A stretch of DNA of 64,000 nucleotides. Source: Gammaproteobacteria bacterium. GTDB lineage: Bacteria > Pseudomonadota > Gammaproteobacteria > Xanthomonadales > SZUA-36. Under the pieces are notes generated by a model. That model did not search any database, was not told the DNA's origin, and worked only from the letters and a program-made list of their open reading frames with translations. The stretch's first letter is position 1, and every line of letters begins with the position of its first letter. Shown here piece by piece: positions 805 to 19,775 of the stretch. The DNA lies in NCBI GenBank assembly GCA_030428105.1, contig JAUIBE010000005.1, forward strand, positions 6,476 to 70,475. Direction: 5' to 3'. Position numbers and translations under genes: made by a program.

Positions 805-842
805 TGCATTGTTAGATGCAGATTTGAGTTTGGAGAATTGAG

Positions 843-1370: not shown

Positions 1371-1408
1371 GCAAGGGCTGCCCTGGCGAATTGACGAGGT
1401 TAAAGAGC

Positions 1409-1771
1409 ATGGACAAGAAAAAAGCGGCGCGTATTCGCCGTGCAACCAAGAACCGCAGCCAGATCCGCAGGCTGGAAGTACCGCGCCTGACGGTGCACCG
1501 CAGTGGCAAGCACCTGTATGCACAGGTCATCGCCGCCGATGGCGCCACCGTGGTAGCCGCGGCTTCAACGGTTCAGAAAGCGCTGCGCGAAGAGCACAGC
1601 CTGAAAGCCACCTGCAACAAGGACGCCGCCGCTGCCGTGGGCAAGACCGTGGCCAAGCGCGCCCTGGATGCAGGTATCGAATCGGTCGCATTCGACCGTT
1701 CCGGCTTCAAGTATCACGGCCGGATCAAGGCGCTGGCGGATGCCGCGCGCGAAGGCGGCCTGAAGTTCTAA
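1409..1771 (+). CDS. rplR: 50S ribosomal protein L18
   Basis: [18 protein letters not shown]... aligns with E. coli L18 (MDKKSARIRRA...). The ORF track starts 18 nt earlier at 1391, but the homolog start is MDKK. Confidence 0.93.
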
Positions 1772-1812
1772 GGCCCGGTAATTAGCGAGTACCCGGACAA
1801 ACAGGAAAGACG

Positions 1813-2325
1813 ATGGCGAATATGGAAAGAGAAAACGGCGACGGCCTGCTGGAGAAGCTGGTTGCAGTCAACCGTGTGGCGAAAGTGGTCAAGGGTGGCC
1901 GTATTTTTGGTTTCACCGCACTCAGCGTGGTTGGCGACGGCGAAGGCAAGGTTGGTTTCGGCTATGGCAAGGCCCGCGAAGTTCCGGTGGCCATCCAGAA
2001 GTCGATGGAAAAAGCCCGCAAGAACATGATCAACGTGGATTTGCGTGACGGCACCCTGTGGCACGCCGTGAAGGCAAGCCACGCCGGTTCGCGTGTGTAC
2101 ATGCAGCCTGCTTCCGAGGGTACGGGCGTAATTGCCGGCGGCGCGATGCGCGCGGTTTGCGAGGCGGTTGGCATTCACAACGTTCTGGCCAAGAGCGTGG
2201 GTTCCAACAACCCGATCAACCTGGTGCGCGCCACGATGAAAGGCCTGCAAGCCATGCAGAGCCCGCAGGCGGTAGCCACCAAGCGTGGCAAGTCGCTTGA
2301 CGAAATCATGGCCAACGTCGGCTGA
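1813..2325 (+). CDS. rpsE: 30S ribosomal protein S5
   Basis: 170 aa with ...[43 protein letters not shown]..., nearly identical to the E. coli S5 core. Confidence 0.96.
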
Positions 2326-2341
2326 ACAGGAAGGTAGAACC

Positions 2342-2530
2342 ATGGCCAAGAAAAAGCAGATCAAGGTGACCCTGACGCGTTCACCCTTTGGATACAAGCC
2401 CCGCCACCGCGAATGCGTACGTGGCCTGGGCCTGAAACGCATGCACCAGACCGTGACTCTGGAAGACACGCCGTCGGTGCGCGGAATGATCAACAAGATC
2501 GATTACATGGTACGAGTGGAGGAAGCCTGA
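2342..2530 (+). CDS. rpmD: 50S ribosomal protein L30
   Basis: Internal ATG of ORF 2285..2530. [33 protein letters not shown]...[20 protein letters not shown] matches L30 at ~60 aa. Confidence 0.92.
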
Positions 2531-2585
2531 GCCCCGGCTTTGAGGCTGAATCTGCGAACCGAGCAGGACATAGGAAAGTACTGAC

Positions 2586-3017
2586 ATGAAACTGAATGAA
2601 CTGAGCCCCGCTGAGGGCGCCAAGAAAGACCGCAAGCGCGCGGGGCGGGGCATCGGCTCCGGCCTGGGCAAGACCGGGGGTCGTGGCCACAAAGGCCAGA
2701 AATCGCGTTCCGGCGGAATGCCCAAGGTTGGCTTCGAGGGTGGTCAGATGCCCTTGCAGCGTCGCCTGCCGAAGCGTGGTTTCGCTTCCAAGACGGCACG
2801 CTACAACGAAGAAGTGCGCCTGTACCAGATCCAGGCCATGAACGCCGACGTGATCAACCTTGAGACCCTCAAGGAAGCGGGCATGATTGGCCACGCGATT
2901 CGCAAGGTGAAGGTCATCAACACCGGCGAAATCGAGCGCGCAGTGACCATCCAGGGCCTGGGCGTGACCGAAGGCGCGAAAGCAGCCATTGAAGCAGCCG
3001 GAGGCAAGGTCGAGTAA
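2586..3017 (+). CDS. rplO: 50S ribosomal protein L15
   Basis: 143 aa, [44 protein letters not shown]..., typical L15. Its stop overlaps the secY start (TAATG). Confidence 0.95.
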
Positions 3018-4360
3018 TGGCTCGTTCCCCCTCACAAATGGCTGAGACTCTGGGCGGACTGGGTCGTTTGACCGAGTTGCGCCAGCGTCTGCTGTTCGTG
3101 TTTGCGGCGCTGATCATCTACCGCATCGGTACGTTTATCCCGGTGCCGGGTGTGAATCCGCAGGCGCTGCTGCAGTTCATGAACTCGCAGCAGGGAACCA
3201 TCGTGGACGTGTTCAACCTGTTCACCGGTGGCGCCCTCGAGCGCTTCTCGCTGTTCGCACTGGGCGTGATGCCGTACATCACCTCGTCGATCATCATGCA
3301 GTTGATGTCCAGCGCGGTACCGCAGCTGGCGCAGCTCAAGAAAGAAGGTTCGGCAGGGCGGCAGAAGATCACCCAGTACACGCGTAACCTGACGGTGCTG
3401 TTCGCCGGCATCCAGGCCGGCGGTGTGGCGTTCGCGCTGCAGGGCCAGACGGGCGTGGTGCTGGCGCCGGGCTTCGGCTTCGTGTTCACCGCCATTGTCA
3501 CGCTGACCGCGGGCACGATTTTCCTGATGTGGCTGGGTGAGCAGATCACCGAGCGCGGCGTGGGTAACGGTATTTCGCTGATTATCTTCGCCGGCATTGT
3601 CGCGGGCTTACCGCGCGCCGTGGCGGGTACGCTGGAACTGGTCAACACCGGCCAGCTCAGCATCCCGGCAACGCTGCTGATCCTGCTGCTGGTACTGGGC
3701 GTGATCTACTTCGTGGTTCGCGTCGAGCGTGGCCAGCGCCGTATCACGGTCAACTATGCACAGCGCCAGGGCAGGGTGGCTTACCAGAACCAGTCAACCC
3801 ACCTGCCGTTGAAGGTGAACATGTCGGGCGTAATCCCGGCGATCTTCGCCTCCAGCATCGTGATTTTCCCGTCCACCCTGGCCACCTGGTTCAGCGGTGG
3901 CGGTAACGCGGGATGGCTTACGGATGTATCCGCGGCGCTGACGCCCGGAAACCTGGCGTACACGATCATGTTCTCGGGCCTGATCATCTTCTTCTGCTTT
4001 TTCTACACGGCGATCGTGTTCAATTCGAAGGAGACGGCCGACAACTTGAAGCGCTCAGGCGCTTTTATCCCGGGGATCCGTCCGGGGCGCCAGACCGCAG
4101 AGTACATCGACACGGTGCTGACGCGCCTGACGATGGTTGGCTCGCTGTACCTGGTGGCAGTGTGTTTGCTGCCTGATATTTTGCGCGTGGTGTGGCAGGT
4201 GCCGTTCTATTTCGGTGGCACCTCGGTCCTGATCGTCGTCGTGGTGATCATGGACTTTATCGCCCAGGTCCAGGCGCATTTGATTTCGCACCAGTACGAC
4301 AGCCTGATGAAAAAGGCAAACCTGAAGTCCTACGGCCGCTCCGGCGTGGTGCGCCGCTAA
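3017..4360 (+). CDS. secY: preprotein translocase subunit SecY
   Basis: 447 aa, multi-TM, with conserved SecY segments (...[19 protein letters not shown]..., ...[24 protein letters not shown]...). Confidence 0.96.
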
Positions 4361-4388
4361 TTACACGGGCCAGGACAGGAGTAGAGAG

Positions 4389-4502
4389 ATGAAAGTACAG
4401 GCTTCGGTAAAGAAAATCTGCCGCAACTGCAAGATCGTGCGCCGCAAAGGTGTGCTGTACGTGATTTGCAGTGAGAAGAAACACAAGCAGCGCCAGGGCT
4501 AG
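4389..4502 (+). CDS. rpmJ: 50S ribosomal protein L36
   Basis: 37-aa [40 protein letters not shown], absent from the ORF track because it is under 60 aa. Near-identical to E. coli L36 and preceded by a GGAG SD. Confidence 0.93.
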
Positions 4503-4514
4503 TCCCCACTCGCT

Positions 4515-4540
4515 GGCTCGATTTCGATTGGATATAATGC
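4515..4540 (+). promoter_or_regulatory. candidate sigma70-type internal promoter (alpha-operon promoter) between rpmJ and rpsM
   Basis: A perfect TATAAT hexamer at ~4533-4538 lies in the 78-nt rpmJ-rpsM spacer. E. coli has an internal promoter at the equivalent position. The -35 element is weak or unclear. Confidence 0.3.
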
Positions 4541-4580
4541 GCCGCCCTAAATCAGGCGCCAAGTAGACAGGAGTTAAGAC

Positions 4581-4937
4581 ATGGCTCGCATTGCAGGAGT
4601 CAACATTCCGATTCAGAAGCACACCTGGGTGGGCTTGACGCACATTTTCGGCATCGGTCGCACGACCGCGCTGAAGATCTGTGAATCGGCAAATGTGGAA
4701 CCGACCACCAAGATTCGTGACCTGACAGAGGCCGAAGTCGAAGCGATTCGCGCCGAGGTTGGCAAGATTACTGTTGAAGGCGATCTGCGACGCGAGGTGT
4801 CCATGAACATCAAGCGTCTCATGGACCTGGGTGCATACCGTGGTCTGCGCCACCGCCGCGGCTTGCCCGTGCGCGGCCAGCGCACCAAGACCAATGCGCG
4901 TACCCGGAAAGGGCCGCGCCGCCCCATCAAGCGTTAA
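4581..4937 (+). CDS. rpsM: 30S ribosomal protein S13
   Basis: 118 aa, [30 protein letters not shown]... with a basic C-terminal tail, typical S13. Confidence 0.96.
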
Positions 4938-4963
4938 TCACTACTGAACAGAGCGATAGATAA

Positions 4964-5347
4964 ATGGCTAAGCCGACAAAGAGAAAGAAGGTTAAAAAGA
5001 CCGTGGTGGACGGCATCGCCCACGTGCATGCTTCTTTCAACAACACCATCATTACCATCACCGACCGCCAGGGTAACGCCCTGTCGTGGGCGACTTCCGG
5101 CGGCGCCGGTTTTCGCGGTTCGCGCAAGAGCACGCCGTTCGCTGCACAGGTTGCAGCCGAGAACGCCGGCCGCGCGGCGCTGGATTATGGTTTGAAAAAC
5201 CTGGAAGTGCGCGTCAAGGGCCCTGGCCCGGGTCGCGAGTCTTCCGTGCGTGCGCTGAACGCTATCGGTTACAAAATTACGAACATTACCGACGTGACGC
5301 CGATTCCGCACAATGGTTGCCGGCCGCCGAAAAAACGTCGCGTATAA
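4964..5347 (+). CDS. rpsK: 30S ribosomal protein S11
   Basis: 127 aa with ...[43 protein letters not shown]..., the S11 signature. Confidence 0.96.
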
Positions 5348-5362
5348 GTGGAGTGAATTCTA

Positions 5363-5989
5363 ATGGCTAGATACACAGGACCCACCTGCAAACTGGCGCG
5401 TCGTGAAGGCGTAGACCTGGAGCTCAAGAGCGCTGCGCGCGGCCTTGAGTCTAAGTGCAAGCTTCAGCAGCCGCCGGGGCAGCATGGCTCTTCCCGTCGT
5501 CAGCGTCTTTCCGACTACGCGCTGCAGTTGCGCGAGAAGCAGAAAGTACGCCGCATGTACGGAGTTTTGGAGCGCCAGTTCCGCAACTACTACAAGCTGG
5601 CCGCCAAGCAGAAAGGCGCCACCGGTGAAAACCTGCTGCGCCTGCTGGAAAGCCGGCTCGACAACGTGGTTTACCGCATGGGCTTTGCTGTAACCCGTGC
5701 CCAGGCGCGCCAGTTGGTGTCGCACAAGGGTATTTCGGTCAACGGCGAAACCGTGAACATCCCGTCCTACCGGGTTAAGCCGGAAGACGTGGTTGCGGTG
5801 CGCGAAAAGGCCAAGAAACAACTGCGAGTCACTGAAGCCGTCACCCTGAGCCAGGAAATGGACATGGTTCCGGCGTGGCTGGAAGTGGACTCCAAGAAGC
5901 TCGAGGGCGCCTTCAAGGCTTACCCGGATCGCGATCAGCTGTCTGCGGACATTAACGAAAACCTGATCGTCGAGCTTTACTCCAAGTAA
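5363..5989 (+). CDS. rpsD: 30S ribosomal protein S4
   Basis: 208 aa, [19 protein letters not shown]..., the S4 N-terminus plus an S4 RNA-binding domain. Confidence 0.96.
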
Positions 5990-6011
5990 TAAATTTTAGC
6001 GAGGTCATCAC

Positions 6012-6998
6012 ATGTTGGGTGTTATTGAAAACATGCTCAAGCCCAGCGCGGTTGGCGTTGACGAAGTCAACCCGAACCGTGCGCGCATCACGCTGGAACC
6101 GCTCGAGCGCGGTTTTGGCCACACGCTGGGTAACGCCTTGCGCAGGGTGCTCCTTTCCTCCATTCCTGGCTGCGCGATTGTCGAAGTCGAGATGGACGGC
6201 GTACTCCACGAGTACACCGCGGTGGAAGGATTGCAGGAAGACATTATCGAGATCCTTTTGAACCTCAAGGGCGTTGCGCTGCGCATGCACGAACGCGAAG
6301 AGGCGGTTCTGACCCTGAGCAAGAACGGGGCAGGCCCGGTCACCGCGGGTGACATCCAGGTAGACCACACCATCGAGGTGGTTAACCCGGATCACATCAT
6401 CTGCAACCTGACCAAGGACGGCAGCATCAACATGCGCCTGAAGGTGGTGCGTGGTGTGGGTTACCAGCCGGCCACCCAGTTCGAGATTGGTGAGCAGGAA
6501 TCACGCCCCATTGGCCGCCTGCAGCTTGATGCGTCTTTCTGCCCGGTGCGCAAAGTAGCGTACAGCGTTGACGCGGCTCGTGTTGAGCAGCGCACCAACC
6601 TGGACAAGCTGGTGCTGGACATCGAAACCAACGGCACGGTTGATTGCGAAGGCGCAGTCAAGCTGGCCGCCAACATCCTGGCTGACCAGCTGGGCGTGTT
6701 CATCGATTTCCGTGCCCGCCAGGAAGTGGAAGCCGAGCCCAAGTCAGAGGAAATCGACCCGGTGCTGCTGCGCCCGATCGACGATCTCGAACTGACCGTG
6801 CGCTCAGCCAACTGCCTGAAGGCGGAAAGCATTCTTTATATTGGCGACCTGGTGCAGCGCACCGAGGTTGAACTGCTGAAAACCCCGAATCTCGGCAAGA
6901 AATCACTCACCGAGATCAAGGACGTGCTTGCTTCGCACGACCTTTCGCTGGGCATGAAACTGGAAAACTGGCCGCCGGCCAGCCTGGTTAGCGCCTGA
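6012..6998 (+). CDS. rpoA: DNA-directed RNA polymerase subunit alpha
   Basis: 328 aa, ...[24 protein letters not shown]... and a C-terminal ...[22 protein letters not shown]..., nearly identical to E. coli RpoA. Confidence 0.97.
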
Positions 6999-7028
6999 GC
7001 GACTGACTAATAACGACAGGAAAGAACG

Positions 7029-7433
7029 ATGCGTCACCTCAAATCAGGAAGAAAGCTGAATCGAACCAGCTCACACCGCAAGGCCATGTTCCGCAACATG
7101 GCGGCGTCGCTGTTCGAGCACGAAATCATCAAGACCACCGTGCCCAAGGCCAAGGAGCTGCGCCGCGTGGCTGAGCCCCTGATTACCCTGGCCAAGGAAG
7201 ACAGCGTGGCGAACCGCCGCCAGGCGTTCGATCGCCTGCGCGACCGCGACACCGTCACCAAGCTGTTCAACGAGCTGGGCCCGCGTTTCGCCGACCGTCC
7301 GGGTGGTTACCTGCGCATTCTCAAGTGCGGCTACCGCGCTGGCGACAGCGCGCCGATGGCGTATGTCGAACTGGTGGGTCGTCCGAGCGGCGAAGGTGCT
7401 GATAACGACGTGGCTGCCGAAGCTGCCGAATAA
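7029..7433 (+). CDS. rplQ: 50S ribosomal protein L17
   Basis: 134 aa, [28 protein letters not shown]..., L17. It is the last gene of the alpha operon. Confidence 0.95.
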
Positions 7434-7458
7434 CAGCAGCTAACAAGTCAAGACATGA

Positions 7459-7486
7459 AAAACCCGGCTTTTAGCCGGGTTTTTTA
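7459..7486. terminator. Rho-independent (probably bidirectional) terminator after rplQ and the convergent RHS gene
   Basis: aaaaaCCCGGCTtttAGCCGGGttttttatt: a perfect GC-rich hairpin flanked by an A-run on one side and a T-run on the other. It sits between the rplQ stop (7433) and the RHS stop (7529). Confidence 0.85.
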
Positions 7487-7528
7487 TTGGCAGTTACAGA
7501 AGAGTGTTCAATCCTAATTGCGAATTCC

Positions 7529-10500
7529 TTAAGGCTCGTCATCTGTCTCAAGAAAGATAACAATGCCTCCTGTCAACACGGATGGGCGGCCGGAAGAGCG
7601 ATCGGTGCTTCCATTGCCCGCGCCGGCTCGCAGATTTTCCGACGCCACGCCCAAAGGTTCCCCTCCTTCAGCCCAGGGGCCCAGGTCCAAGCCGGCGGGT
7701 GCGCGCCGACGAGTCCTGGGCTCAATCGAATTACATCCGGTCAATGACAGCAGATCTTCCCGTTCAATCGTTAAGGGTGCATTGACGGGGTCACCAACCA
7801 GTTCCGCCACGGATCCGAACCAGCCAAAGGTCAAGGCCGACCAATGGGCGACGTGACAAGGCAGTCCAACCTCGTTGTTAAGGGCGCCAGCAATCGTTGA
7901 GCTGACAGTCATCACCGCCTCGAAAAAAACAGCTTCGTCTATGGCCGCGGTCTCCCCGGTAGGGTCGGTAACCCTCGTCGGATTGTTGAGCGCATAGCGG
8001 TACAGGTTGTAATCACGACCCCTGAATCCCAGCGGATCCTCCTGGGTGAAGCGGCCATGCGCAGAGTCGTAAAAGCGACGGCGGTTGTCGTATAAGCCCA
8101 ATTCGGGCACCCAGGGGCGGGCTGCAAATCCCAGCGTTTCGCCAGCAGGCAGCATGGAACCCGGTTGCAGGTTGCCGTAGCTGTCGTAGTCGAGCCATGC
8201 CTGCACGACAAAGGCTGCATCGGTAACTCCGCGTACTGAGCCGAGTTGATCGTGCAAATACCAACGTTCGCCCAATGCATCGTCGCGCCAGGCGGCATAG
8301 ACCGCATCCAACTTGGCAGGATCGTAGAGGTAGCTTGCGCTCAAGACGTTGGCGCCTTCTGAAAATTCGGCGACCGGTTGCTGGTGGTCGTGAAGAACCC
8401 AGGTGCGAACACCGTTGACGATTCTAAAAAGCAAACGATTTTGATAGTCATAGCCGAACTCGAGTAGGTCGTCGGCCGGGGCGCCCAGGGAGGCATGCGT
8501 GCTGGCGCGGATCAGCCGATTGCGGTGGTCATATGCCAGCTCGATGACGCTGCCCGTGACGGTGTCGGTGCGACGAACCAGGTTGCCCGCATCGTCGTAA
8601 TCAAATGTGAAGTCACCTGAAGCGGTCAGTTCATTTGCTGCGGCGAAGGTCGCAGCACCCGGGGCCGTGTGCGAGGTAAGCCGATTTCCTCCCAGATCGT
8701 AGGTGTAGGATTCATCGGGATAGGCCGGATCAGAATGCATCGCTGAAAGGATTTGCCCGTTGCCATCGTAGGAGTAGGAGGCGGTATTTCCCGCATTGAC
8801 TTCACTCAGCAAGCGGCCTTCAGGATCCCACGAATAGCCCAGGTCGCCGTTTCCATGAAGCAGCGCACCGCCGTCATCTTCGTGCCTGATCTGAGCCACG
8901 CGGCCCAGGTTGTCGTAGCTAAAGTGGGTCACGGCAACCGCGTTGCCGCCGTTGGCGCCGGTTTCGCGCTGCACGCGCTCCAGTCGGCCGGTACTGGTGC
9001 GGCGCAGTTCAACGGAATTGTCCACACCGCTGGAACCGGGGTGCAGCCACCGCAAGCCCCAGACCTGGCCGGCATAAGGCTGAACCTGAATCCGGGCTCG
9101 TGTGCTGGCGCCAAGATTGACCCTGATATCAGCAGGCGTGTGAATCTCGTTGTTCCAGGTGTAGCGAATCTGCCAGTCTTCCTGCCCTGGTAGCACATAG
9201 GTCACCCGGCTTGGTCTCGGTAGCGCACCGCTGTAGACCAGCGTGTAGGTTTCGCCTGCCGTCATGTCGCTGTCGTCAATCTGCTGCAGCCCGGTTGCGG
9301 CCGAGTAGGTGAAGACGATTTCGCGTACCACAGCACCGCCACCGTCGTGCCAGAGCTCTCGTGTCATCCTGCGATTGGCATCCCATTCGAAGGTACGTCG
9401 CTTGCCGTTGCGGTCGATGGTCTCGACCACGTTTCCGGCCGGGTCGTAGGTTGCGGAGCGAGCATTACCGCGAGAGTCAGTGAACGAGCCCGGACGGTTA
9501 AGTGCATCAAAGGCGTAAGTTCGGCCATAGCCCAGTGGATCGGTGATGCTTGCTGGGTTGCCGTCCGCATCGAATTGGGTTGCCACATTGCCACCTTCTG
9601 GCAATCCCAGCGATACGGGCCGACCGTCCGCGTCAAAGTCGACCTGCGACACATTGCCGTTGCGATCGGTGCGCGTCAGCGACTCATCACTGTTGCGGGT
9701 AAGCGTTGCGGTGTTTCCGTCGTCGTCGGTCTGCGTGTTGACCAAGCCATGGGGTGAAAAGCTGACGCTCAGGTTGCCGTTGTCGTCATCACGCTGAATC
9801 ATGCGCCCGGACGCGGAATTGGTCATGTTTGATTCATAGCCGTAGGAGTTGGACTGATGATTGACAAACCCGAACGCGTCGTAACCGTACTCGACCACGA
9901 AATCGTCACCCAGGCGACGGCGTGAGAGACGACCTTCCGGTCCGTACTCGAAAGTGAATTCCAGCCCGTCAAACGGTACTTCGCTGAGCCGATTGCCGAT
10001 GGAATCGTAGGTGTAGACCGATACATTTCCGTCGTTGTCTTCGAACCGGGTCAGATTGCCCAGTGCGTCGTACTCCATGTCGAAACGCTGCTGGGAAAGG
10101 CCCGATGCAAGCGGCGTGCTGAGGCGCGTTGGCAGACCCAGGTTGTTGTACTCGTAGATCCACGATTCGCCAAGCTGATCGGTAACCCGGGTGCGAAGGT
10201 CGGGGTTGGCCGGGTCTGCGTATTCAAATGTCATGGTGTTGCCGAGCGGATCTTCCTCAAAAACAATGTTTCCACGCGCGTCAAACTGGCTATAGGTGGT
10301 ATTGCCACGGGCATCCATGGTCACGCCGTCAAACGCCGCCGTATCAACCAGGGATTCTCTGCGATTGCCATTTTCATCGATCACCGCGATCAGGCGGCCG
10401 GTGACCGGGTCGTACTCGTAGCTTCGGAATGATCGGCCCTGCGGGTCAGTAATCGTGTCCAGGAAATGAACAGGGCTGGCATGGTACGAATACGTCTCAG

Positions 10501-13198
10501 TGATTCCATCAGCGTCCGTATGAGAATCCAGGTTGCCCTGTGCATCGTAGGAATAGCTCCAGGTGTTGCCCTCGGGGTCGATGATGTCGGTGATCCGGTC
10601 TGCACCGTCTCGAACGTAAGTCAGCCGCATTCCGCTCGAGTGTTCCACGCCGTCCGGGTTAAAGCTCAGGGTATTGCCGTTGAGGTCTTCGGCAGCCAGT
10701 AAGCCCTTATCTTCATGGATGGTGTAACGAATGCCTTCGCGTGAAACAAGTATGTATTGCTCCGGGTTGTAAGGCAGTGCAATGGGGAACAGGAAGGCTT
10801 CTCCGTCTGCACGGATGGTAATGAAAGGCGCGTCACCCTGGGGTACTTCGAGACGATAATAGGTGCCCGGGTCCGGTGTGAAGACCACGCGGTAGGGTTG
10901 GCCCAATGGGCTTGGGGGCCCCAGCTCCGGGTTGAAAGTGAAGCCGAGCCGCTCGCCGGTTGGCGCGTTCACGTATACACGTGTGCCGACGCGAAGCGGG
11001 GTGGCGCCGAACAAACCCAACACGCCGGTATCGGGTACTGTCTCGCGTAGATCCGGGTCCTGCATGCCAAGCGACCAGCCGAACCCGAAATCACCGCTCT
11101 TGTTCGCTTCAATCGAGTCGTAGATTCGCTCCAGCCGTAACGGAAACCCAGCGAGGTTAATCGCGATATCCTCGAACACCACCCGGTTTCGGCCGAGTTT
11201 TTTCTCCCCGGTCACTTCCAGCAGCAGCGGCTCAACCCAACCCATGCCGATCGTGTTTCGCGCCATGACGCGGACAACGTAGCGGCCGTTGCGCAGCATG
11301 GTCGCATCGAAGCTGGCGAGCACTGCCTCGACATCGACGGTGTCGCTTCCCTGGCCGATACGCCGCCAGTTGGCGTTATCTGCGCCCAGGTTATTGAGGT
11401 TTATTTCTGCAGCCGGTGCGACATCGACAAACCAATCAAGTAGCGGCTGTACCGACATGATGGACCCGAGAATATCCACTGCCACGGAAACATGATCATC
11501 ATTGCTGGGTGAGCTGATGGATATCTGTGGCCTCAGGTCTGCTTCCGAAACATTTCTGGCGATGACCTGGCCAAAGTGTGCCGGTGGACCGGTGGCACCC
11601 TGGGCAGTCAGGCGCAGGAAGTAGATGCCGTCTGCCAGCGTTGACATTGGTGCCGTGCCGATTACTTCGGAAAACACGTTACCCGAGCCGGCCGCCAACT
11701 GCTGATAGTCGGGGTCGTCTACTTCCAGTGCGTAAGGATCAATATCCGCCACTGGTGCGATTTCCAGTTGCCATGTGACTGGTGTCGGGGGTCCGAGGAC
11801 TGACGCGGTGATGGGCAGGTCGTCACTGCTTACAGTGCCCGGCGCCGGGGTGACGATTTTCACCGCAGGCGCGCCTTCGCCAGCGTTGGAAGAGCCGGTT
11901 GAATTCGGCGAAAAGGGGTCACTACCATCGGCATTAAGCACATAGAGCACGGCATCGCGCTGCACCGACTGTCCCGCCGAATCGATGGCCTCGGCTTCGA
12001 TGAGCAATTCACCGGCCATGGTCGTGGGCACCACGGCACTGAGCCCGCTGTCCAGCGGTACCAGCGCACCGTTCACTTGCAGTGTCGTGGTGGCAATGGC
12101 CACATCGTCGGTTGCCGTCAGTTGCACCGTCACTGACTCTCCGGCGAGCACTTCCGGGGTTTCCGGGTCGTTGTCGGTTACGCCCAGGGCGAGGCTTGGC
12201 GGTAGATCCTGTGAGTAGCGGCCGAAATCACGATCCTCGAAGATGAGCTCTGTTTGGGTGATATTGACCACATGGGTACCCGGAGCCGGAGCAGCGATGC
12301 TAAGCGCTTCAAGTCCGGCCACCTCAGCCCCAGCCCACGCGCCGCCATTGCCCACTGCAACCAGGGTGACGTAATGCACGGGACCCTGGTATGCAATGTC
12401 CGATAGGTCCAGATACACACCAGTGATCTCTTCGGCGTAGATACCCATGGATACCTGGGTAAATTCCGTTGGACCAACCAGTACCTCAAAGGCCTCATCG
12501 GTTTGTGCATCCAGGGTGTGAATGAGCAGATCGGGCCCGGGGCCGTCAAAGACCACCTCGTCGAAGCGAACTGTCAGGCGTGCAGTGTCCGGCATCGTCA
12601 GAACTTCGACGCCGCGAGTCACGCGACCCGCGGTCAATTTATTGCGCACCCCGATTGGCTGGAGAACCAGGTCAACGCTGTCGATAGGTTCCGGCAGGGG
12701 ACGAGTGGAGATCTGTGGCCAATCGGGCGGAAAGGGCCAGGCGAGCTTGCCGTAGGGCACATCAAAATCGCCTGTCCCGGCGGGAGCGTGAACGTAATCC
12801 ACAACCTCGTCGGGCAGGCCGTCGGTCACGGGCGTAATACCGCCTTCGGGAAAGGTCTGCACGGCTGGGGGCGTCAAGGCCTGCCTCACGTGGTAAAGAC
12901 CTTGCGGCAAGTTCAAGAACTGATAAAAGCCGTCGGCGGCGGATTCGGTAACCCAGTCGTCGTCATCCAGGATGCCGTTGAAGTTCAAATCCAGGTAAAT
13001 CTGCACCCCGGAGCGCGGATCTTCCCCGCTGAGGTCTCCGTCGTGGTCCGAGTCGAAGTAGACGTGGCCGGAAATGGTCCCGGGATTGGCCAGACCTTCA
13101 AAGCCATGACGAAATACCACATCGCCACCCGAGGCAGCGAAGGCGGGTAACGCCGGTAACAGGAGGATCAACGCCAGGGCTAGCCTGGCATTCATCAT
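7529..13198 (-). CDS. secreted RHS/YD-repeat protein (~1890 aa) with an N-terminal SdrD-B/CnaB-like domain and a 140-aa C-terminal domain after the DPxGE core boundary
   Basis: Signal peptide MMNARLALALILLLPALPAFAASG (the track ORF starts 54 nt upstream at 13252). FDSDHDGDLSGEDP... is a B-type calcium-binding fold. Dozens of YD repeats are present (YDALGNLTRF, YTYDSIGNRL, YDPAGNVVE...). The canonical RHS core end is ...RFYDSAHGRFTQEDPLGFRGRDYNLYRYALNNPTRVTDPTGE, followed by a 140-aa tail. Confidence 0.9.
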   Translation of the reverse strand: MMNARLALALILLLPALPAFAASGGDVVFRHGFEGLANPGTISGHVYFDSDHDGDLSGEDPRSGVQIYLDLNFNGILDDDDWVTESAADGFYQFLNLPQGLYHVRQALTPPAVQTFPEGGITPVTDGLPDEVVDYVHAPAGTGDFDVPYGKLAWPFPPDWPQISTRPLPEPIDSVDLVLQPIGVRNKLTAGRVTRGVEVLTMPDTARLTVRFDEVVFDGPGPDLLIHTLDAQTDEAFEVLVGPTEFTQVSMGIYAEEITGVYLDLSDIAYQGPVHYVTLVAVGNGGAWAGAEVAGLEALSIAAPAPGTHVVNITQTELIFEDRDFGRYSQDLPPSLALGVTDNDPETPEVLAGESVTVQLTATDDVAIATTTLQVNGALVPLDSGLSAVVPTTMAGELLIEAEAIDSAGQSVQRDAVLYVLNADGSDPFSPNSTGSSNAGEGAPAVKIVTPAPGTVSSDDLPITASVLGPPTPVTWQLEIAPVADIDPYALEVDDPDYQQLAAGSGNVFSEVIGTAPMSTLADGIYFLRLTAQGATGPPAHFGQVIARNVSEADLRPQISISSPSNDDHVSVAVDILGSIMSVQPLLDWFVDVAPAAEINLNNLGADNANWRRIGQGSDTVDVEAVLASFDATMLRNGRYVVRVMARNTIGMGWVEPLLLEVTGEKKLGRNRVVFEDIAINLAGFPLRLERIYDSIEANKSGDFGFGWSLGMQDPDLRETVPDTGVLGLFGATPLRVGTRVYVNAPTGERLGFTFNPELGPPSPLGQPYRVVFTPDPGTYYRLEVPQGDAPFITIRADGEAFLFPIALPYNPEQYILVSREGIRYTIHEDKGLLAAEDLNGNTLSFNPDGVEHSSGMRLTYVRDGADRITDIIDPEGNTWSYSYDAQGNLDSHTDADGITETYSYHASPVHFLDTITDPQGRSFRSYEYDPVTGRLIAVIDENGNRRESLVDTAAFDGVTMDARGNTTYSQFDARGNIVFEEDPLGNTMTFEYADPANPDLRTRVTDQLGESWIYEYNNLGLPTRLSTPLASGLSQQRFDMEYDALGNLTRFEDNDGNVSVYTYDSIGNRLSEVPFDGLEFTFEYGPEGRLSRRRLGDDFVVEYGYDAFGFVNHQSNSYGYESNMTNSASGRMIQRDDDNGNLSVSFSPHGLVNTQTDDDGNTATLTRNSDESLTRTDRNGNVSQVDFDADGRPVSLGLPEGGNVATQFDADGNPASITDPLGYGRTYAFDALNRPGSFTDSRGNARSATYDPAGNVVETIDRNGKRRTFEWDANRRMTRELWHDGGGAVVREIVFTYSAATGLQQIDDSDMTAGETYTLVYSGALPRPSRVTYVLPGQEDWQIRYTWNNEIHTPADIRVNLGASTRARIQVQPYAGQVWGLRWLHPGSSGVDNSVELRRTSTGRLERVQRETGANGGNAVAVTHFSYDNLGRVAQIRHEDDGGALLHGNGDLGYSWDPEGRLLSEVNAGNTASYSYDGNGQILSAMHSDPAYPDESYTYDLGGNRLTSHTAPGAATFAAANELTASGDFTFDYDDAGNLVRRTDTVTGSVIELAYDHRNRLIRASTHASLGAPADDLLEFGYDYQNRLLFRIVNGVRTWVLHDHQQPVAEFSEGANVLSASYLYDPAKLDAVYAAWRDDALGERWYLHDQLGSVRGVTDAAFVVQAWLDYDSYGNLQPGSMLPAGETLGFAARPWVPELGLYDNRRRFYDSAHGRFTQEDPLGFRGRDYNLYRYALNNPTRVTDPTGETAAIDEAVFFEAVMTVSSTIAGALNNEVGLPCHVAHWSALTFGWFGSVAELVGDPVNAPLTIEREDLLSLTGCNSIEPRTRRRAPAGLDLGPWAEGGEPLGVASENLRAGAGNGSTDRSSGRPSVLTGGIVIFLETDDEP

Positions 13199-13387
13199 TC
13201 CTTTTACTGGACATCGGGTTGAGGCAGTGCGCGAAAATGCAATCATGTTCAAAACTCATCCTGACTACATAACCATCGCGCAAACCGAAGGCAAGTTCGG
13301 ACACTCATCTTGCAAGCACGCGCAAGGCCTTGGAAAATAAGGGCTAGTCGAGTCACCCGAGCAATCAAGGCAGCAGAGTTGCGGTTT

Positions 13388-13978
13388 ATGGACGGATCCG
13401 GGCAGAGCATCACGCAATGGCTAAGGGAGCTTCCGGCTCGCCAGGAGGGTGCGTGGGAGGAGCTTGCACCCGCCCTCTATACAGAACTTCGCCTGCTGGC
13501 TCACGCCCGATTGCGACATGAGCGACCCGGCCACACCTTGTCCACGACCGGGCTGGTTCACGAGGCTTACCTGAAGCTTAGCCAGCAGCTAAATCTCGAC
13601 GTTAACAGCCGCGCCGAGTTTTTTGCTTTCGCCAGCGAATGCATGCGCCGCGTACTGGTCGACTATGCACGGGCTCGCCAGGCGGTAAAACGCGGTGGTG
13701 GCGCAGTGCCAGCAACGTTCGACGACGCCATTCTGATTACCGATGCACAGGCCAAAGAAGTGACAGAAATTGATTTGGCACTCAACAAGCTGGAACAGCG
13801 ACTGCCACGCTGCGCACTGGTCCTGCAATGCCGGCTGTTTGGCGGCTTGACGCTTGATGAGACCGCGAGCGCGCTGGCTGTTTCTGCGAAGACGGTTCAG
13901 CGTGACTGGACCGCGGCAATTGCCTGGCTGAGAAGTGAAGTCGGTCCGGAACAGACATCGTTCGAAGTTGACCTTTGA
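13388..13978 (+). CDS. ECF-type sigma-70 family factor (kinase-associated ECF class)
   Basis: ...WEELAPALYTELRLLAHARLRHERPGHTLSTTGLVHEAYLKL... is the sigma-2 region of ECF sigma factors that lack anti-sigma partners and pair with Ser/Thr kinases. C-terminal sigma-4 HTH: ...GGLTLDETASALAVSAKTVQRDW.... Start chosen at the internal ATG (MDGSGQ); the track ORF begins at 13310. Its stop overlaps the kinase start (ATGA). Confidence 0.8.
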   Translation: MDGSGQSITQWLRELPARQEGAWEELAPALYTELRLLAHARLRHERPGHTLSTTGLVHEAYLKLSQQLNLDVNSRAEFFAFASECMRRVLVDYARARQAVKRGGGAVPATFDDAILITDAQAKEVTEIDLALNKLEQRLPRCALVLQCRLFGGLTLDETASALAVSAKTVQRDWTAAIAWLRSEVGPEQTSFEVDL

Positions 13979-16446
13979 TGACCCGGGCCGATTGGCATGA
14001 TTTGCTCCCCTTGTTCGAGAACATTGCATCCAGGCCTGCAAGCGAACATTCCGCCCTGGTTGACCGGGCAGTCTCCGAGCATGGACTGAACGCCGACCAG
14101 AAGCAGATGCTTTGCGACATGCTGCGCGGGCTTCGGGCCGACCCCCTGCACCTGGAGGAATCCCTGCGGCCAGAAGACACGCTGCCGGAGCGATTCGGCC
14201 CGTATCGCGTACTGGAGCAAATCGGCAAGGGTGGCATGGGGGAGGTATTCCTTGCCGAACGCGATGATGGTGCGTTTGAGCGCCGCGTGGCGATCAAGAC
14301 AATTACAACTCGAGTCGTACCGACGAGTTGGGCCGATCGCTTTCACCGCGAGCAGGCCATTCTTGGCAAGTTGCAGCACGTTGGCATCGCGCGAATGCTC
14401 GACGCTGGTGTCAGCGATGAGGGCATTCCTTACCTGGTTCTGGAATATGTCGATGGGCAGAGCATCCTGGAATTCGCCAGCCGGAATCAGCTTTCGACTC
14501 GCCAACGGGTTGAGCTGATCATCCAGGTTTGCGATGCATTGGCGTTTGCCCACAACCGGCTGGTTCTACATCGCGACATCAAGCCGGCCAATCTCCTGGT
14601 GGGTGCGGATTCACAAGTGCGGCTGCTGGACTTTGGAATCGCCAAGTTGCTTGATGATGACGAACCAGGGCAACGCTTCCAGACTCAGACCGGAGAGCGC
14701 CTGCTGACGCCCCGCTATGCCAGCCCTGAGCAAAATCGTAGTGATGCGCTGAGTGTGGCCAGCGATGTCTATTCGGTGGGCGTGGTGCTCTACGAGTTGC
14801 TTACCGGAAAGACGCCGTTTGCAGAAGTGTCCGACTATGAACTCGCCGGCGCCCAACACAACCAGAGCCCAAAGGCGCCAACCCGAACAGTTGCGGGAAG
14901 CCTGGTGCCGGCTGACCTGCAGGCAATCTGTCTCAAGTCCCTGGAAGTCAATGTAGCGGATCGCTACCCCACCGCGGCAGATCTTGGCGAGGATTTGCGG
15001 CGCTTTATGGGTCACCGCACGATTTCGGCCAGGAAGCCTGGCCTTGTTGAGCGCGCCAAGCGCCTTCGGCAGCGACATCCGGTGGCGTTTCCCCTATCTG
15101 CCCTGGCCGGCCTGATCATTGTCGTGGCGGTTGCAACCAGTGTCTGGCAAGCCAACGAAGCCGCGCTGCAGAGAGACCAGGCAGAGGCTGAGCGGGACAG
15201 GGCGGAAGAAGTTTCCCGCCTGTTGATTGACCTCTTTGACTCGGATCCATTTGCGGAAACCGAAGAACGCCGCGACGACCTTACCCTGCGAGAATTCCTG
15301 GTCAGTCGTGCGGACCAAATCGATGCCTCCATGGGCGATCATCCCCAGTTGCAGGCCACGATTTCCGAGCTGTTTGCCAGCATGCTGACCAACCTGGCCT
15401 TGCTTGACGAGGCCAATCCGCACGCCGAAAAAGCACTGGCGCTTAACCGCCTGTTGCATGGTGACGGCCCGAACGAAGACCTCGCCAAGAGCCTCAATAC
15501 ACTGGGAACACTTCGTCAGCACCAGGGCCGCTTTGACGAAGCTGAAGCAGCTTTTCGCGCGGCGCTTGCAATGAGGGAGCAACTTTACGAATACGACCAT
15601 CCGCTGGTCGCCACCAGCGTGAACAATCTGAGCGCGCTGCTTCACTATTGGGGCAAGCCAGACACCCTGGACGAGGCATTCCAGCTCGACGAGCGGGCGC
15701 TGCAGGTCAACATCAAGCGCTTTGGAGCCAGGTCCCTTCAGGCCGCGCAGAATTACAACAACCTGGCGGCCTCGCTGCATGCGAGGGGAGAGTCGGAAGA
15801 CCTCGTTCGCGCTGCGGACTTGATGAGTGAAGCACTTGATATTCGCCGTCAGCTCCTGGGAGAGCGGCACCCCAACACCATCAACGCCATATCCAACCTG
15901 GCCAATATCAAGTACGACTCCGGAAATTTGGGAGAAGCTGACCGCCTGTTTCGCCAGGCCCTTGAGTACACCCGCGCGGCCATGGGGGATGAACACACGC
16001 GAGTTGCGGATGTGCTTTATGGGCATGCGCCACTGCTGGTTGACCTCGGCAAACTGGACGAGGCCATACAATCCCTCACCGAAGCGTTGGCCATCTACAA
16101 CCAGGCGTTGCCTGCAGGTCATCCATACCAGGCGGATACAGCAGTTGCCCTGGGCCGGGCTTTGGTTGCTGCGGGCTCACTCGAGCAAGCAGTGCCACAT
16201 TTCGAGCGCGCTGCTGGCATTCTTGAGCCCCGGCCCGAATTTATCGCTGACTGGTTCGAGGCGCGCTACTTGCTGGCCTCAACGCTGGAATCGGCCGGGG
16301 CGCACCAGCGCGCTATGCAGGTGGCCGCAGCGCTGTTAGATGAGCCAGGGGCATCCCAGCACCTGTCACAGGAACAGGTGGATCAGCTGGCCAGCGCACT
16401 TGATCTTCAGTTTCAGAAGATCAATGAATCTACCCCCGAAAATTGA
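13975..16446 (+). CDS. membrane Ser/Thr protein kinase with C-terminal TPR repeats
   Basis: Hanks kinase motifs: GKGGMGEVFLAE (P-loop), AIK, HRDIKPANLL (catalytic loop), DFGIAKL. A TM segment (AFPLSALAGLIIVVAVATSVW) is followed by ~400 aa of TPR-like repeats (NLAASLHARGESEDL..., NLANIKYDSGNLGEA...). Confidence 0.88.
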   Translation: MMTRADWHDLLPLFENIASRPASEHSALVDRAVSEHGLNADQKQMLCDMLRGLRADPLHLEESLRPEDTLPERFGPYRVLEQIGKGGMGEVFLAERDDGAFERRVAIKTITTRVVPTSWADRFHREQAILGKLQHVGIARMLDAGVSDEGIPYLVLEYVDGQSILEFASRNQLSTRQRVELIIQVCDALAFAHNRLVLHRDIKPANLLVGADSQVRLLDFGIAKLLDDDEPGQRFQTQTGERLLTPRYASPEQNRSDALSVASDVYSVGVVLYELLTGKTPFAEVSDYELAGAQHNQSPKAPTRTVAGSLVPADLQAICLKSLEVNVADRYPTAADLGEDLRRFMGHRTISARKPGLVERAKRLRQRHPVAFPLSALAGLIIVVAVATSVWQANEAALQRDQAEAERDRAEEVSRLLIDLFDSDPFAETEERRDDLTLREFLVSRADQIDASMGDHPQLQATISELFASMLTNLALLDEANPHAEKALALNRLLHGDGPNEDLAKSLNTLGTLRQHQGRFDEAEAAFRAALAMREQLYEYDHPLVATSVNNLSALLHYWGKPDTLDEAFQLDERALQVNIKRFGARSLQAAQNYNNLAASLHARGESEDLVRAADLMSEALDIRRQLLGERHPNTINAISNLANIKYDSGNLGEADRLFRQALEYTRAAMGDEHTRVADVLYGHAPLLVDLGKLDEAIQSLTEALAIYNQALPAGHPYQADTAVALGRALVAAGSLEQAVPHFERAAGILEPRPEFIADWFEARYLLASTLESAGAHQRAMQVAAALLDEPGASQHLSQEQVDQLASALDLQFQKINESTPEN

Positions 16447-17651: not shown

Positions 17652-19775
17652 ATGTATTTCATGATGAAAGGGAACATGGTGCGACGGGCGTTTCTGGTTT
17701 TGGCCGGGGTAATGCTGGCCGCCGCCGAAACAGGGTTCGCCGCCACCATCACGGTTAACGCCCCAGACTCCGATGGATTCACCATTGCCGATGATGGCCA
17801 GTGCACGCTGACCGAGGCGATCACCTCTGCCAACTCCAACACGGCTTCCGGCGCGAGTGCTGGCGAGTGTGCGGCGGGTGATTTCGAACCCACGGTGGAT
17901 ACGATTGAGTTCGCACCATCGGTTTCTCCAGGGGTCATTCATACGTTGAGTACGCTGGTGGTCATCAGTTCGGTGGAAATTCTGGGGCCGGGTCGCCAGT
18001 TACTGACGCTGACCAATATCGCGGAGAACCGGCTGTTCGATGTGACCTCCGGTGTGGCGGGAGTCAGCTTCACGATTCGGGACCTTACCCTGGCCAGCAA
18101 CCGGGTCACCGGAGAGGGCAGCGCTATCCAGGCCGCCCTGGGCAGTGGTACGGAGTTGAATGTCAGCCGCGTCCACTTTCTGGGCAACAGCGCTGACCGT
18201 GGGGGCGGCGCCATGGCCGTTTATGGCACGTCGAATACGCCACCTGCGGAAATCCTGATCGTCAACTCGGTATTCGAGGACAACTTCGTCAACGATGACG
18301 AGGCCAGTGACCAGGAGACCGGTGGCGGAGCCATTTTTGTCGGGGCCGGCATCAATGTTACGGTGCGAAACAGCACTTTCGTGGGCAACCGGGCAGAAAA
18401 CCTCAGCAGGCCGGAACCGCAGGAAGACCTCTCCGGTGGCGCCATCCTGATCCGTTCCGCTGATCCTTTTTTTACCAACGTAGTGATTGATTCGTCGACT
18501 TTTCATTCGAACATTGCCTATGGTCCCGGCGGCGCCGTTGCGGTTGGAGGTTTTGGCTTTCCCGATGAAGACTCCACTGTGGAGATCCGTCACTCCACCT
18601 TCACCGCCAATATCGCGGATTTCAACGCCAACCAGAGCGGGGCGACGATCCATGGTGGCGGGGGTATCTGGTCCGGAAGCAGTGTTGCCACCACGCTCAG
18701 GAACACCGTGGTCGCGCTCAACGAAGACCGCGCGGTTTCGTTTGAGAATGATATTTCGGGCGCGGTCATTTCGTCCGGCTTCAACTTGATTTCTGACGCG
18801 TTGGGCCACGGTGGCACCTTTCCCGCGGGCCAACCCAATGCCAATGACGACTGGGTGGGCTTGTTCCCCGTCATTCTTGATCCCGAGCTGGATGTTTTGG
18901 CAGACAACGGCGGCCCGACATCCACTTCCATGCCCATGGCTACCAGTCTGCTGATTGACCACGGCAAATGCATCGCCAAATCCATCGATCAACGCGGATT
19001 CCATGACCCGGTGGCCATGACCCGCGCGGTTGACGACCCGTCGGTCGCAGACAGCGATGATGGTTGTGATATCGGTGCGGTGGAACGGGGCGCGGAGATT
19101 GCAAACAGCCCGCCGGTGGCCAACGACGATGACTATTTCCTGCTGGAAGGCGACGCGGTCGTGTTTGGTGTTTCCCTTGGCGTGTTGTCGAATGACGTCG
19201 ATGACGACCCGCTGGTGGTCGTTGACGCGGGAAGCCGACCGCTCGACAACGGCAGTGGATTGAGCGGCGAACTCGAGCTAGCCATTGATGGCAGTTTTGC
19301 CTTTACCCCGGATGACCCCGACATGAACGGTGCGGTCAGCTTCCAATACGACGTGACGGACCAGCGCACCCAGGTGACGGGCGAGGCCACCATCCACCTG
19401 GCTCCTGTGAATGACGCGCCCAGCTTCACCGCGACCCTGCTTAACCTGCAGTTGGCGCCGGGAACGGTGTTCAGCGAAAGCGGCTGGGCCAGTGATATTT
19501 CCCCTGGCCCGGCCAATGAGTCGGACCAGCTGTTGCAGTTCGTGATTTCCGGCAGCCCGCCGCCGAACTTTTTCACCGTTCCGCCCAGTGTCAATGCCAC
19601 CACCGGCGACCTCTCGTTCACGCTCCACAGCCAGGCCAGCGGCACCGCGGAGTTGCAGATCCGCTTGCAGGATTCTGGTGGCACCAGCAGTGGCGGGGTC
19701 AACCTGTCGCCGCCGGTCAGCCTGACGATTGAGTCGCTCAACGCAGACGTGCTGTTTTCCGATGGCTTCGAGTAG
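17652..19775 (+). CDS. secreted CSLREA-domain / right-handed beta-helix repeat protein with tandem cadherin/Ig-like domains
   Basis: Signal peptide (MVRRAFLVLAGVMLAAAETGFA). ...DDGQCTLTEAITSANSNTASGASAGECAAGDF...TIEF is the C-S-L-R-E-A motif region. Repeated NxxFxxN / 'SxFxxN' beta-helix rungs are present. C-terminal ...PPVANDDDYFLLEGDAVVFGVSLGVLSNDVDDDPLVV... and ...APVNDAPSF... resemble VCBS/cadherin-like repeats. Confidence 0.7.
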   Translation: MYFMMKGNMVRRAFLVLAGVMLAAAETGFAATITVNAPDSDGFTIADDGQCTLTEAITSANSNTASGASAGECAAGDFEPTVDTIEFAPSVSPGVIHTLSTLVVISSVEILGPGRQLLTLTNIAENRLFDVTSGVAGVSFTIRDLTLASNRVTGEGSAIQAALGSGTELNVSRVHFLGNSADRGGGAMAVYGTSNTPPAEILIVNSVFEDNFVNDDEASDQETGGGAIFVGAGINVTVRNSTFVGNRAENLSRPEPQEDLSGGAILIRSADPFFTNVVIDSSTFHSNIAYGPGGAVAVGGFGFPDEDSTVEIRHSTFTANIADFNANQSGATIHGGGGIWSGSSVATTLRNTVVALNEDRAVSFENDISGAVISSGFNLISDALGHGGTFPAGQPNANDDWVGLFPVILDPELDVLADNGGPTSTSMPMATSLLIDHGKCIAKSIDQRGFHDPVAMTRAVDDPSVADSDDGCDIGAVERGAEIANSPPVANDDDYFLLEGDAVVFGVSLGVLSNDVDDDPLVVVDAGSRPLDNGSGLSGELELAIDGSFAFTPDDPDMNGAVSFQYDVTDQRTQVTGEATIHLAPVNDAPSFTATLLNLQLAPGTVFSESGWASDISPGPANESDQLLQFVISGSPPPNFFTVPPSVNATTGDLSFTLHSQASGTAELQIRLQDSGGTSSGGVNLSPPVSLTIESLNADVLFSDGFE

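Follow-up and report, generated by a model that had tools for sequence, protein, structure and literature searches.

Polymorphic toxins, including those of the rearrangement hotspot (RHS) type, are usually understood as toxin-immunity pairs. Among the described systems closest to the one reported here, the teneurin-like protein (TLP) BiTLP of Bacillus inaquosorum (PDB 9pt5 and 9ifo) carries a hydrophobic C-terminal domain (CTD) of 92 amino acids (aa), which is cleaved, enclosed in the shell and disulfide-linked, and which permeabilises membranes from the periplasmic side only; CTDs of ~15 kDa fit the cavity of such shells (PMC13018210). The C-terminal region (CT) of Tse5 is a pore-forming Rhs cargo (PMC10684867). 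Here we report an RHS gene on a stretch of 64,000 nucleotides (nt) from a Gammaproteobacteria bacterium (Xanthomonadales, SZUA-36; assembly GCA_030428105.1, contig JAUIBE010000005.1, positions 6,476 to 70,475), referred to below as the window, and compare it with its relatives. We regard it as somewhat probable that the encoded protein is a Sec-exported, self-cleaving RHS cocoon that delivers a small peptide effector, whose toxicity we infer, to non-kin targets.

The coordinates of the gene, its domains and the adjacent features are listed in Table 1. The open reading frame (ORF) encodes 1907 aa from TTG at nt 13252, 1905 aa from ATG at nt 13246 (the public call, P0001) or 1889 aa from ATG at nt 13198; residues are numbered in the 1889-aa form, the start of which is also that of the preliminary description of this DNA. 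Three independent public assemblies hold the identical gene, including its C-terminal extension, together with rplQ and the same upstream genes at 100% DNA identity, so the ORF is not an assembly artefact.

Table 1. Position of the RHS gene, its predicted domains and neighbouring features in the window.
Feature	Position (nt)	Strand	Residues (aa)	Basis or remark
Whole RHS gene	7529..13252	minus		single uninterrupted ORF
Putative Sec-type signal peptide	13136..13198	minus	1-21	read by eye from sequence
N-terminal stalk, about five beta-sandwich/immunoglobulin (Ig)-like domains	11213..13081	minus	~40-107, 200-300, 335-421, 445-548, 558-662	weak Pfam matches, AlphaFold2, Foldseek
RHS/YD-repeat shell	8189..11161	minus	~680-1670	Pfam RHS_repeat, TIGR01643, NF041261
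Rhs-associated core, aspartyl autoprotease plug	7955..8188	minus	1671-1748	TIGR03696, E=2.9e-17
Family-conserved tail module	7724..7954	minus	1749-1825	alignment of relatives, AlphaFold2
Organism-specific extension, G/A/R/P/S-rich	7532..7723	minus	1826-1889	no counterpart in any relative
GAG (Glu1826), candidate stop-loss site	7721..7723	minus	1826	modal stop position of relatives
Stop codon TAA of RHS gene	7529-7531	minus
Plausible bidirectional intrinsic terminator hairpin of rplQ and RHS gene	7459..7486	both		folding and U-runs
rplQ	7029-7433	plus		convergent with RHS gene
Extracytoplasmic function (ECF) sigma factor (PF07638)	13310-13978	plus		divergent from RHS gene
Ser/Thr kinase-TPR protein	13975-16446	plus		follows ECF sigma factor

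The central part of the protein matches Pfam RHS_repeat (PF05593) in eight stretches (E=6e-57) and, partially, the NCBIfam models TIGR01643 (YD repeats; E=6e-38) and NF041261; the precomputed annotation of P0001 is PF25023 (TEN_YD-shell). Its nearest PDB sequence matches are the Rhs cocoons 8h8a, RhsA (7q97), Tse5 (8cp6) and Tse15, and BiTLP; all are remote (~100 bits), and each alignment ends at the core boundary. The core ends at G1748 of the sequence ...NNPTRVTDPTG (nt 7955; E1749 is encoded by nt 7952-7954), in agreement with the preliminary description, which had placed this point at about nt 7952. It contains the motif P-x4-DPTG and the bipartite motif DPLG-x20-DPTG. Residues R1708, D1721 and D1745 (R1724, D1737 and D1761 in P0001) are invariant in 24/24 aligned sequences, and the Arg is placed 13 residues before the first Asp, as are R2103 and D2116 in BiTLP; the motif definition (PxxxxDPxG, bipartite aspartyl protease and Arg) is that of PMC13018210. 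These matches and motifs assign the protein to the RHS/YD-repeat proteins with an Rhs core, and the autoproteolysis apparatus is predicted to be intact.

The N-terminus, MMNARLALALILLLPALPAFA followed by AS, has on visual reading of the sequence an n-h-c pattern and an AFA/A site, and looks like a Sec signal peptide; this putative leader has its counterpart in hydrophobic N-terminal runs in nearly all relatives. The following stalk gave weak Pfam matches to SdrD_B and Big_7, and its AlphaFold2 model is all-beta, with a predicted local distance difference test score (pLDDT) of up to ~90 in the last two domains. A Foldseek search with the stalk gave, at low TM-scores throughout, nothing more specific than tandem arrays of MG/Ig/FN3 domains, large adhesins of bacteria and S-layer proteins, and a PDB profile search with the N-terminal alignment gave no match. 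The N-terminal ~680 residues are conserved family-wide (53% mean column identity in the alignment), and the models identify them as a stalk or display module and not as an enzyme.

This architecture is similar to that of BiTLP, in which a Sec signal (putative in the family) is combined with Ig-like domains for adhesion near the N-terminus and with a YD/RHS shell that has the PxxxxDPxG site, the bipartite aspartyl protease and the correspondingly spaced Arg. Both have a small helical or hydrophobic tail (~92 aa in BiTLP, ~77 aa in the family) with a cysteine that is functional in BiTLP and presumably so in the family, where the tail would likewise lie inside the shell. The similarity of the shells amounts to ~98 bits, whereas the tails have no sequence similarity and the alignments stop at the core. 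The CTD cysteine of BiTLP bonds to the FN-plug, whereas the only two cysteines of the RHS family both lie in the tail, and TLPs are almost always accompanied by a downstream immunity gene, which the RHS family lacks. Of the TLP superfold, neither the FN-plug (PF24329) nor NHL (PF25021/PF01436) was found at E<=0.1, and the N-terminal model up to aa 662 consists of beta-sandwiches only.

The Rhs effectors that a type VI secretion system (T6SS) exports, namely Tse5 of P. aeruginosa, RhsA of P. protegens, Tse15 of A. baumannii and the effector of PDB entry 8h8a, which are the best PDB sequence matches, share with the family the cocoon, the autoproteolysis motif and a CT that is exchanged at DPxG, and the cargo of Tse5 is small and membrane-active. 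They have PAAR, VgrG-binding or clade domains, no signal peptide and an adjacent immunity gene (e.g. tsi5), whereas the family has a putative Sec leader and a stalk. The protein has no PAAR, DUF6531 or VgrG-related Pfam match, and no T6SS, PAAR, VgrG or Tc genes are present among the 20 annotated ORFs of the window, whose other contents are ribosomal genes, peptidases, histidine catabolism and similar housekeeping functions.

The targets of Tc toxins are not kin, and hence these toxins, like apparently the family, need no immunity gene. TcB-TcC resembles the family in its RHS cocoon and in the autoproteolytic release, predicted for the family, of an encapsulated, exchangeable C-terminal hypervariable region, but Tc toxins depend on TcA as translocator and on the beta-propeller of TcB as gate, and carry an enzyme cargo of ~30 kDa, whereas the cargo of the family is a peptide of ~8 kDa; Pfam signatures of TcA, TcB and SpvB were found neither in the protein nor in the neighbouring ORFs. 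WapA (Bacillus subtilis/Streptococcus suis) shares RHS repeats, an N-terminal display region and a variable C-terminal module, and is Sec-dependent, as is predicted for the family, but its Gram-positive wall anchor, nuclease-type toxin domains and downstream WapI all lack an equivalent in the RHS family.

A full-length search yielded ~40 proteins of 1,820-2,260 aa with 34-68% identity at 91-97% query coverage. When species-representative genomes were scanned with an alignment as query, family members were recovered in metagenome-assembled genomes (MAGs) of Wenzhouxiangellaceae/Lysobacterales at ~50% identity and in many Verrucomicrobiota at 34-46%, including the cultured Roseibacillus ishigakijimensis; a single-protein query gave none. 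The 24-sequence alignment has a mean column identity of 59%, and on these comparisons the RHS protein belongs to an uncharacterised orthologous family. Some genomes carry more than one copy. One contig (L015; nt 53-3319 and 3680-9229) holds two tandem paralogs, both with the same tail module family, followed by a 327-aa uncharacterised protein, of which a homolog lies downstream in L014, and a 902-aa DUF11/beta-helix protein. The Verrucomicrobiales MAG CBDDAB01 has two paralogs (L012 and L018), whose tails are of a 78-aa two-Cys type and a 100-aa type.

The core is followed by 141 residues that match no Pfam or NCBIfam family. The preliminary description had treated them as one unassigned CTD of 140 aa; the lack of assignment stands, but the region comprises two parts, a conserved module of 77 aa and an extension of 64 aa. 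The module is common to ~25 full-length relatives from Wenzhouxiangellaceae/Lysobacterales and Verrucomicrobiota, and in close relatives every tail has 69-99 aa after DPxG. The shared pattern consists of a helix, the motif PC.IA..A..F.YFD..AE.I.DP, a proline-rich stretch and a terminal (T)GC, with C1781 (nt 7856-7858), F1791 and C1822 (nt 7733-7735) invariant. AlphaFold2, run with the tail alignment, predicts a hairpin of two helices (tail residues 2-24 and 30-54; pLDDT ~80-90) and a short helix (68-72). In most members the mature protein of ~1,850 aa has exactly two cysteines, the invariant tail pair, spaced 41-44 residues apart; further cysteines of family members fall in the N-terminal leader. 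That the only two cysteines of a mature protein exported to an oxidising compartment form this pair argues for an intramolecular disulfide, which would join the start of helix 2 to the C-terminus.

In an exhaustive phmmer search of 1.8 billion representatives, the tail found one match, a family member that aligned with tail residues 17-76 only. A hidden Markov model of the tail, scanned locally against all fetched loci, matched solely the C-termini of the family, and orphan modules occurred in no locus and nowhere in the window. Tail-only and tail-profile searches of a word-indexed database of 5.8 billion proteins came back empty, missing even the identical protein and the members of the profile, and are uninformative. 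More distant Verrucomicrobiota relatives have other short tails of 64-136 aa, some cysteine-rich and some glycine-zipper-like. Distant Verrucomicrobiota relatives of 3,200-3,400 aa (L025, L031, L040 and L041) end in tails of 89-127 aa that are strongly hydrophobic and rich in small-xxx-small, glycine-zipper-like motifs, and that look much likelier to be membrane-inserting than the tail in the window.

In close pairs of proteins, identity falls abruptly from the core to the tail. The proteins P0006 and P0008 are 88% identical in the core (90% in its last 60 residues) and only 32% in the tail, and their DNA alignment breaks directly after the DPSG-E codons; P0002 and P0122 share 94% of the core (96.7% of the last 300 residues) and 61% of the tail. 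In two further pairs the core and tail identities are 84% and 78% (P0012/P0014), and 82% and 86% (P0009/P0014). One core clade (>=70% identity) holds three tail sub-types, and the tail of P0006 groups with those of P0003 and P0005, though the cores are only ~52% identical. Between P0006 and P0008 the proportion of synonymous differences (pS) is 0.30-0.36 for the core but reaches saturation, at 0.77, in the tail, and wherever synonymous divergence (dS) is measurable, the ratio of nonsynonymous to synonymous divergence (dN/dS) of the tail is 0.17-0.23, near the core value. The abrupt drop in identity after DPxG together with the saturated dS of the tail points to an exchange of alleles by recombination. 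By these measures the tails are old, purified alleles imported by recombination at DPxG and are products neither of positive selection in situ nor of decay, and the tail is predicted to be functional and modular. A conserved, non-polymorphic tail, which had also been considered, was dropped in view of the abrupt divergence of close pairs. The C-terminal region thus varies between close relatives as in polymorphic toxins, but a recognisable toxin domain is not present. The polymorphism envisaged in the preliminary description was found as hypervariability and exchange at DPxG; the tails are nevertheless homologous across relatives, and the variants within the close family all belong to one fold family and are not unrelated toxin domains.

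An immunity gene was sought at 13 loci, the first 11 of which were compared by all-against-all alignment of their flanking ORFs, whereas L090 and L091 were inspected separately. None of the 13 loci has a conserved downstream ORF or one linked to a tail sub-type, and no family of flanking ORFs is common to most of the first 11. The neighbours are an MFS (major facilitator superfamily) transporter and a convergent sigma-54 activator in L001, a racemase followed by a 253-aa uncharacterised protein and a von Willebrand factor A (VWA) protein in L003, a convergent 136-aa ORF in L005, transposases and a 3-keto-disaccharide hydrolase in L006, collagen-like or DUF11/beta-helix surface proteins in L013 and L015, and rplQ in the window; in the window, L001 and L005, the gene directly after the RHS gene is convergent. 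These varying contexts indicate that the ribosomal location is an accident of this genome, apparently confined to this organism and without meaning for the family, and that the lack of an immunity gene characterises the family as a whole. The preliminary description had tied the lack of immunity to the junction with rplQ, which does not agree with the other loci, and had called the ribosomal location unusual, which is correct for this organism only; its alternative of a housekeeping adhesin conserved at the ribosomal locus is contradicted by the different gene contexts elsewhere.

At the junction itself, the hairpin AAAAACCCGGCTTTTAGCCGGGTTTTTT is a perfect palindrome between an A-run and a T-run. 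It folds at -21.2 kcal/mol on one strand (z = -5.8) and at -17.9 kcal/mol on the other (z = -5.0), and a U-run follows in each direction, so that it could plausibly act as a bidirectional terminator of rplQ and the RHS gene, which converge on it; a simple terminator scan missed it, though it apparently fits the stated criteria of that scan. The RHS stop codon is only 42 nt (not 45 nt, as first described) from the hairpin, so no ORF can fit downstream, as had been noted.

In the reading that we favour, the protein would be exported by the Sec pathway, and its shell would then fold around the tail within the periplasm, where the two tail cysteines would be oxidised to the disulfide. The core would cleave after G1748 and free a peptide of 8-15 kDa inside the cocoon (~8 kDa in the family, 15 kDa here). 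The cocoon may be displayed or released, possibly via the type II secretion system (T2SS), which is encoded by Wenzhouxiangella genomes (PMC7691419), and the beta-sandwich stalk would bind a target, and the peptide would be delivered as an effector on non-kin, e.g. prey bacteria or eukaryotic grazers. Non-kin targets would explain why the producer lacks cognate immunity, as with the hypervariable regions of Tc toxins. Among the alternatives of the preliminary description, a novel type of CTD needing no cognate immunity fits best, and its overall picture is upheld, namely that of a giant, presumably secreted RHS protein which has a leader of putative Sec type, whose C-terminal region is unassigned and which no immunity gene follows.

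Several points weigh against this reading. Effector function, cleavage, disulfide and secretion are predicted from sequence and models. No homolog of known function was found for the tail, either by sequence or by fold (Pfam, NCBIfam, PDB profile and Foldseek PDB searches). The hydrophobicity of its helices is only moderate (on the Kyte-Doolittle scale, the best mean over 19 residues is 0.8-1.96), and the net charge of most tails is negative (-1 to -14). Membrane-active peptides with antibacterial action are not usually of this kind, and on both counts there is no support for a tail that is clearly transmembrane or pore-forming. The exchange of tail alleles is typical of kin-discriminating toxins, which normally need immunity, and an immunity gene elsewhere in the genome would be compatible with it. 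As regards the C-terminal extension, a search for close strains in which the ORF is shorter gave none, and the retrieved copies are 100% identical.

Some of these points would also suit an RHS protein of the cell surface or the extracellular space that is not toxic but serves in adhesion, structure or signalling; its tail would then have a structural part to play or be released as a signal. The stalk resembles adhesin/Ig arrays, the neighbours in the Wenzhouxiangellaceae clade include large surface proteins (Flg_new_2, DUF11/beta-helix and collagen-like) and a Trans_reg_C-TPR regulator, the tail is acidic, only moderately hydrophobic and without toxin homology, and an immunity gene is lacking; moreover, metazoan teneurins have repurposed YD shells for adhesion (PMC13018210). 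We nevertheless consider this explanation unlikely. None of the 24 aligned members departs from the autoprotease triad, which non-toxic teneurins have lost (PMC13018210), and the exchange of the tail between lineages as a cassette would be unexpected for a purely structural element. Homology of the C-terminus to a structural (non-toxin) domain, which the preliminary description had considered, was not found by PDB profile or Foldseek searches.

A classical kin-directed polymorphic RHS toxin, with its immunity gene elsewhere in the genome or in a very small uncalled ORF, would account for the hypervariability of the tails relative to the core and their exchange at DPxG, for the other short tail types of distant relatives, including glycine-zipper-like hydrophobic ones, and for the different tails of the two paralogs in the Verrucomicrobiales MAG; in TLPs, nearly all toxin genes have an immunity gene after them (PMC13018210). 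This alternative appears less likely still, given the 13 loci without a conserved or sub-type-specific ORF after the RHS gene and the convergent genes that come next in three of them. The comparison that weighs most is that of the loci L090 (P0006) and L004 (P0007), which have different tail sub-types and are syntenic on both sides, in the order Trans_reg_C-TPR regulator, Flg_new_2 protein, RHS gene and radical-SAM (S-adenosylmethionine) gene. The gaps before the radical-SAM gene, 297 nt in L090 and 155 nt in L004, contain no credible ORF, and the tail cassette therefore moves without a partner gene. Orphan tail or immunity modules are absent from all loci scanned, and close-family tails are, as noted, variants of one fold.

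The 64-aa extension is a separate matter. In ~25 relatives, 0-6 residues follow the last Cys (19 in one of them), as opposed to 67 in the protein of the window. The GAG codon of Glu1826 stands at position +4 after the final Cys, which is the modal stop position (TGCNTK-stop, TGCSPR-stop, TGCNAR-stop etc.), and differs from TAG by one base. Tail residues 77-141 are predicted to be disordered (AlphaFold2, pLDDT <50), and the G + C content at second codon positions (GC2) of the extension is 0.60-0.63, compared with 0.35-0.54 in all other segments of the gene. The extension has no homolog among 1.8 billion representatives or in any frame of ~90 related loci; it is therefore not the remnant of a degraded neighbouring or immunity gene, and this explanation was dropped. 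Once a stop has been lost, it is unremarkable for 61 or more codons to pass before the next one (P 0.14 from composition, 0.35 empirically). The extension is probably a read-through after a TAG-to-GAG stop loss, i.e. a translated former 3' flank. A DNA alignment of the 3' end with a 68%-identical relative, meant to place the former stop, did not come into register. With its extension the tail (141 aa, ~15 kDa) would lie within the cargo size of YD shells (PMC13018210). That the extension is not neutral read-through but a functional gain, either a sorting or secretion signal or extra cargo, is improbable: three independent assemblies hold it intact and without differences, and it would still fit the shell, but it is missing from all ~25 relatives, is without homolog, predicted to be disordered and atypical of the RHS gene in codon-position composition, contains on visual reading no PEP-CTERM, GlyGly-CTERM or LPXTG-like motif, and its identical copies carry no information on selection.

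Upstream, the divergent ECF sigma factor and the kinase may regulate the RHS gene, or such pairs may merely be abundant in such genomes. In L016 (nt 4364-7741, minus strand), homologs of both (35% and 33% identity) form a pair located 1.5 kb downstream of the RHS gene, and a kinase fragment is located at the end of L013. An ECF-promoter-like sequence, GAAC-N16-CGAT, is present at nt 13275-13298 (minus strand), ~100 nt upstream of the ATG at nt 13198. As a candidate ECF-type promoter it is weak; the pattern occurs 17 times in the window, where 8 occurrences would be expected, and nowhere upstream of the genes of relatives.

Two further genes, 4-9 kb from the RHS gene (nt 17652-22319, plus strand), encode a surface protein of the PMP-repeat/Big_9 type (707 aa) and a Trans_reg_C-TPR regulator (817 aa). 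In the Wenzhouxiangellaceae relatives (L004, L014, L090 and L091), a Trans_reg_C-TPR regulator is located directly upstream of the RHS gene, usually with a Flg_new_2 protein; these regulators are ~25% identical to that of the window, i.e. at the level of paralogs. A conserved operon was rejected, since ECF-kinase pairs, Trans_reg_C-TPR regulators and large surface proteins occur only in subsets of the loci and at 25-41% identity. Farther away, a cluster of secreted or periplasmic peptidases (Met-zincin DUF4953/DUF5117, S9 prolyl oligopeptidase, M48 and M20; nt 22316-36015) fits the proteolytic lifestyle described for Wenzhouxiangella (PMC7691419); a Wenzhouxiangellaceae-like origin of the window is suggested by its nearest relatives. 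The same stretch encodes a 632-aa protein without Pfam match (nt 26110-28008, plus strand), the C-terminal 150 aa of which are 44% identical to an ORF (nt 4700-5842) directly upstream of the RHS gene in L005.

The overall system is recognisably RHS; what is unusual is the exchange of cassettes without immunity and the presence of two cysteines only. A more far-reaching interpretation, which we regard as doubtful, is that of a distinct RHS delivery class, in which Ig-stalked cocoons would carry recombining, single-disulfide peptides of ~8 kDa without immunity, as inter-species, predatory or anti-grazer effectors or in signalling, and in which the copy in the window would represent the de novo birth of C-terminal sequence, by stop loss, within an encapsulated cargo. 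For annotation, the locus is a warning that half of an unassigned CTD is probably a translated former 3' flank. For experiments, it offers a mature protein with two cysteines, invariant catalytic residues and a natural variant with 64 aa appended to the cargo. One genus of the Wenzhouxiangellaceae includes a described predator of Gram-positive bacteria. The family has retained the shell for encapsulation, the site of self-cleavage and the cassette exchange of its cargo without an immunity gene. If our reading is true, the diversification of the cargo would be separate from kin discrimination, and a class of small RHS-delivered peptides would exist in marine and saline Wenzhouxiangellaceae and Verrucomicrobiota.

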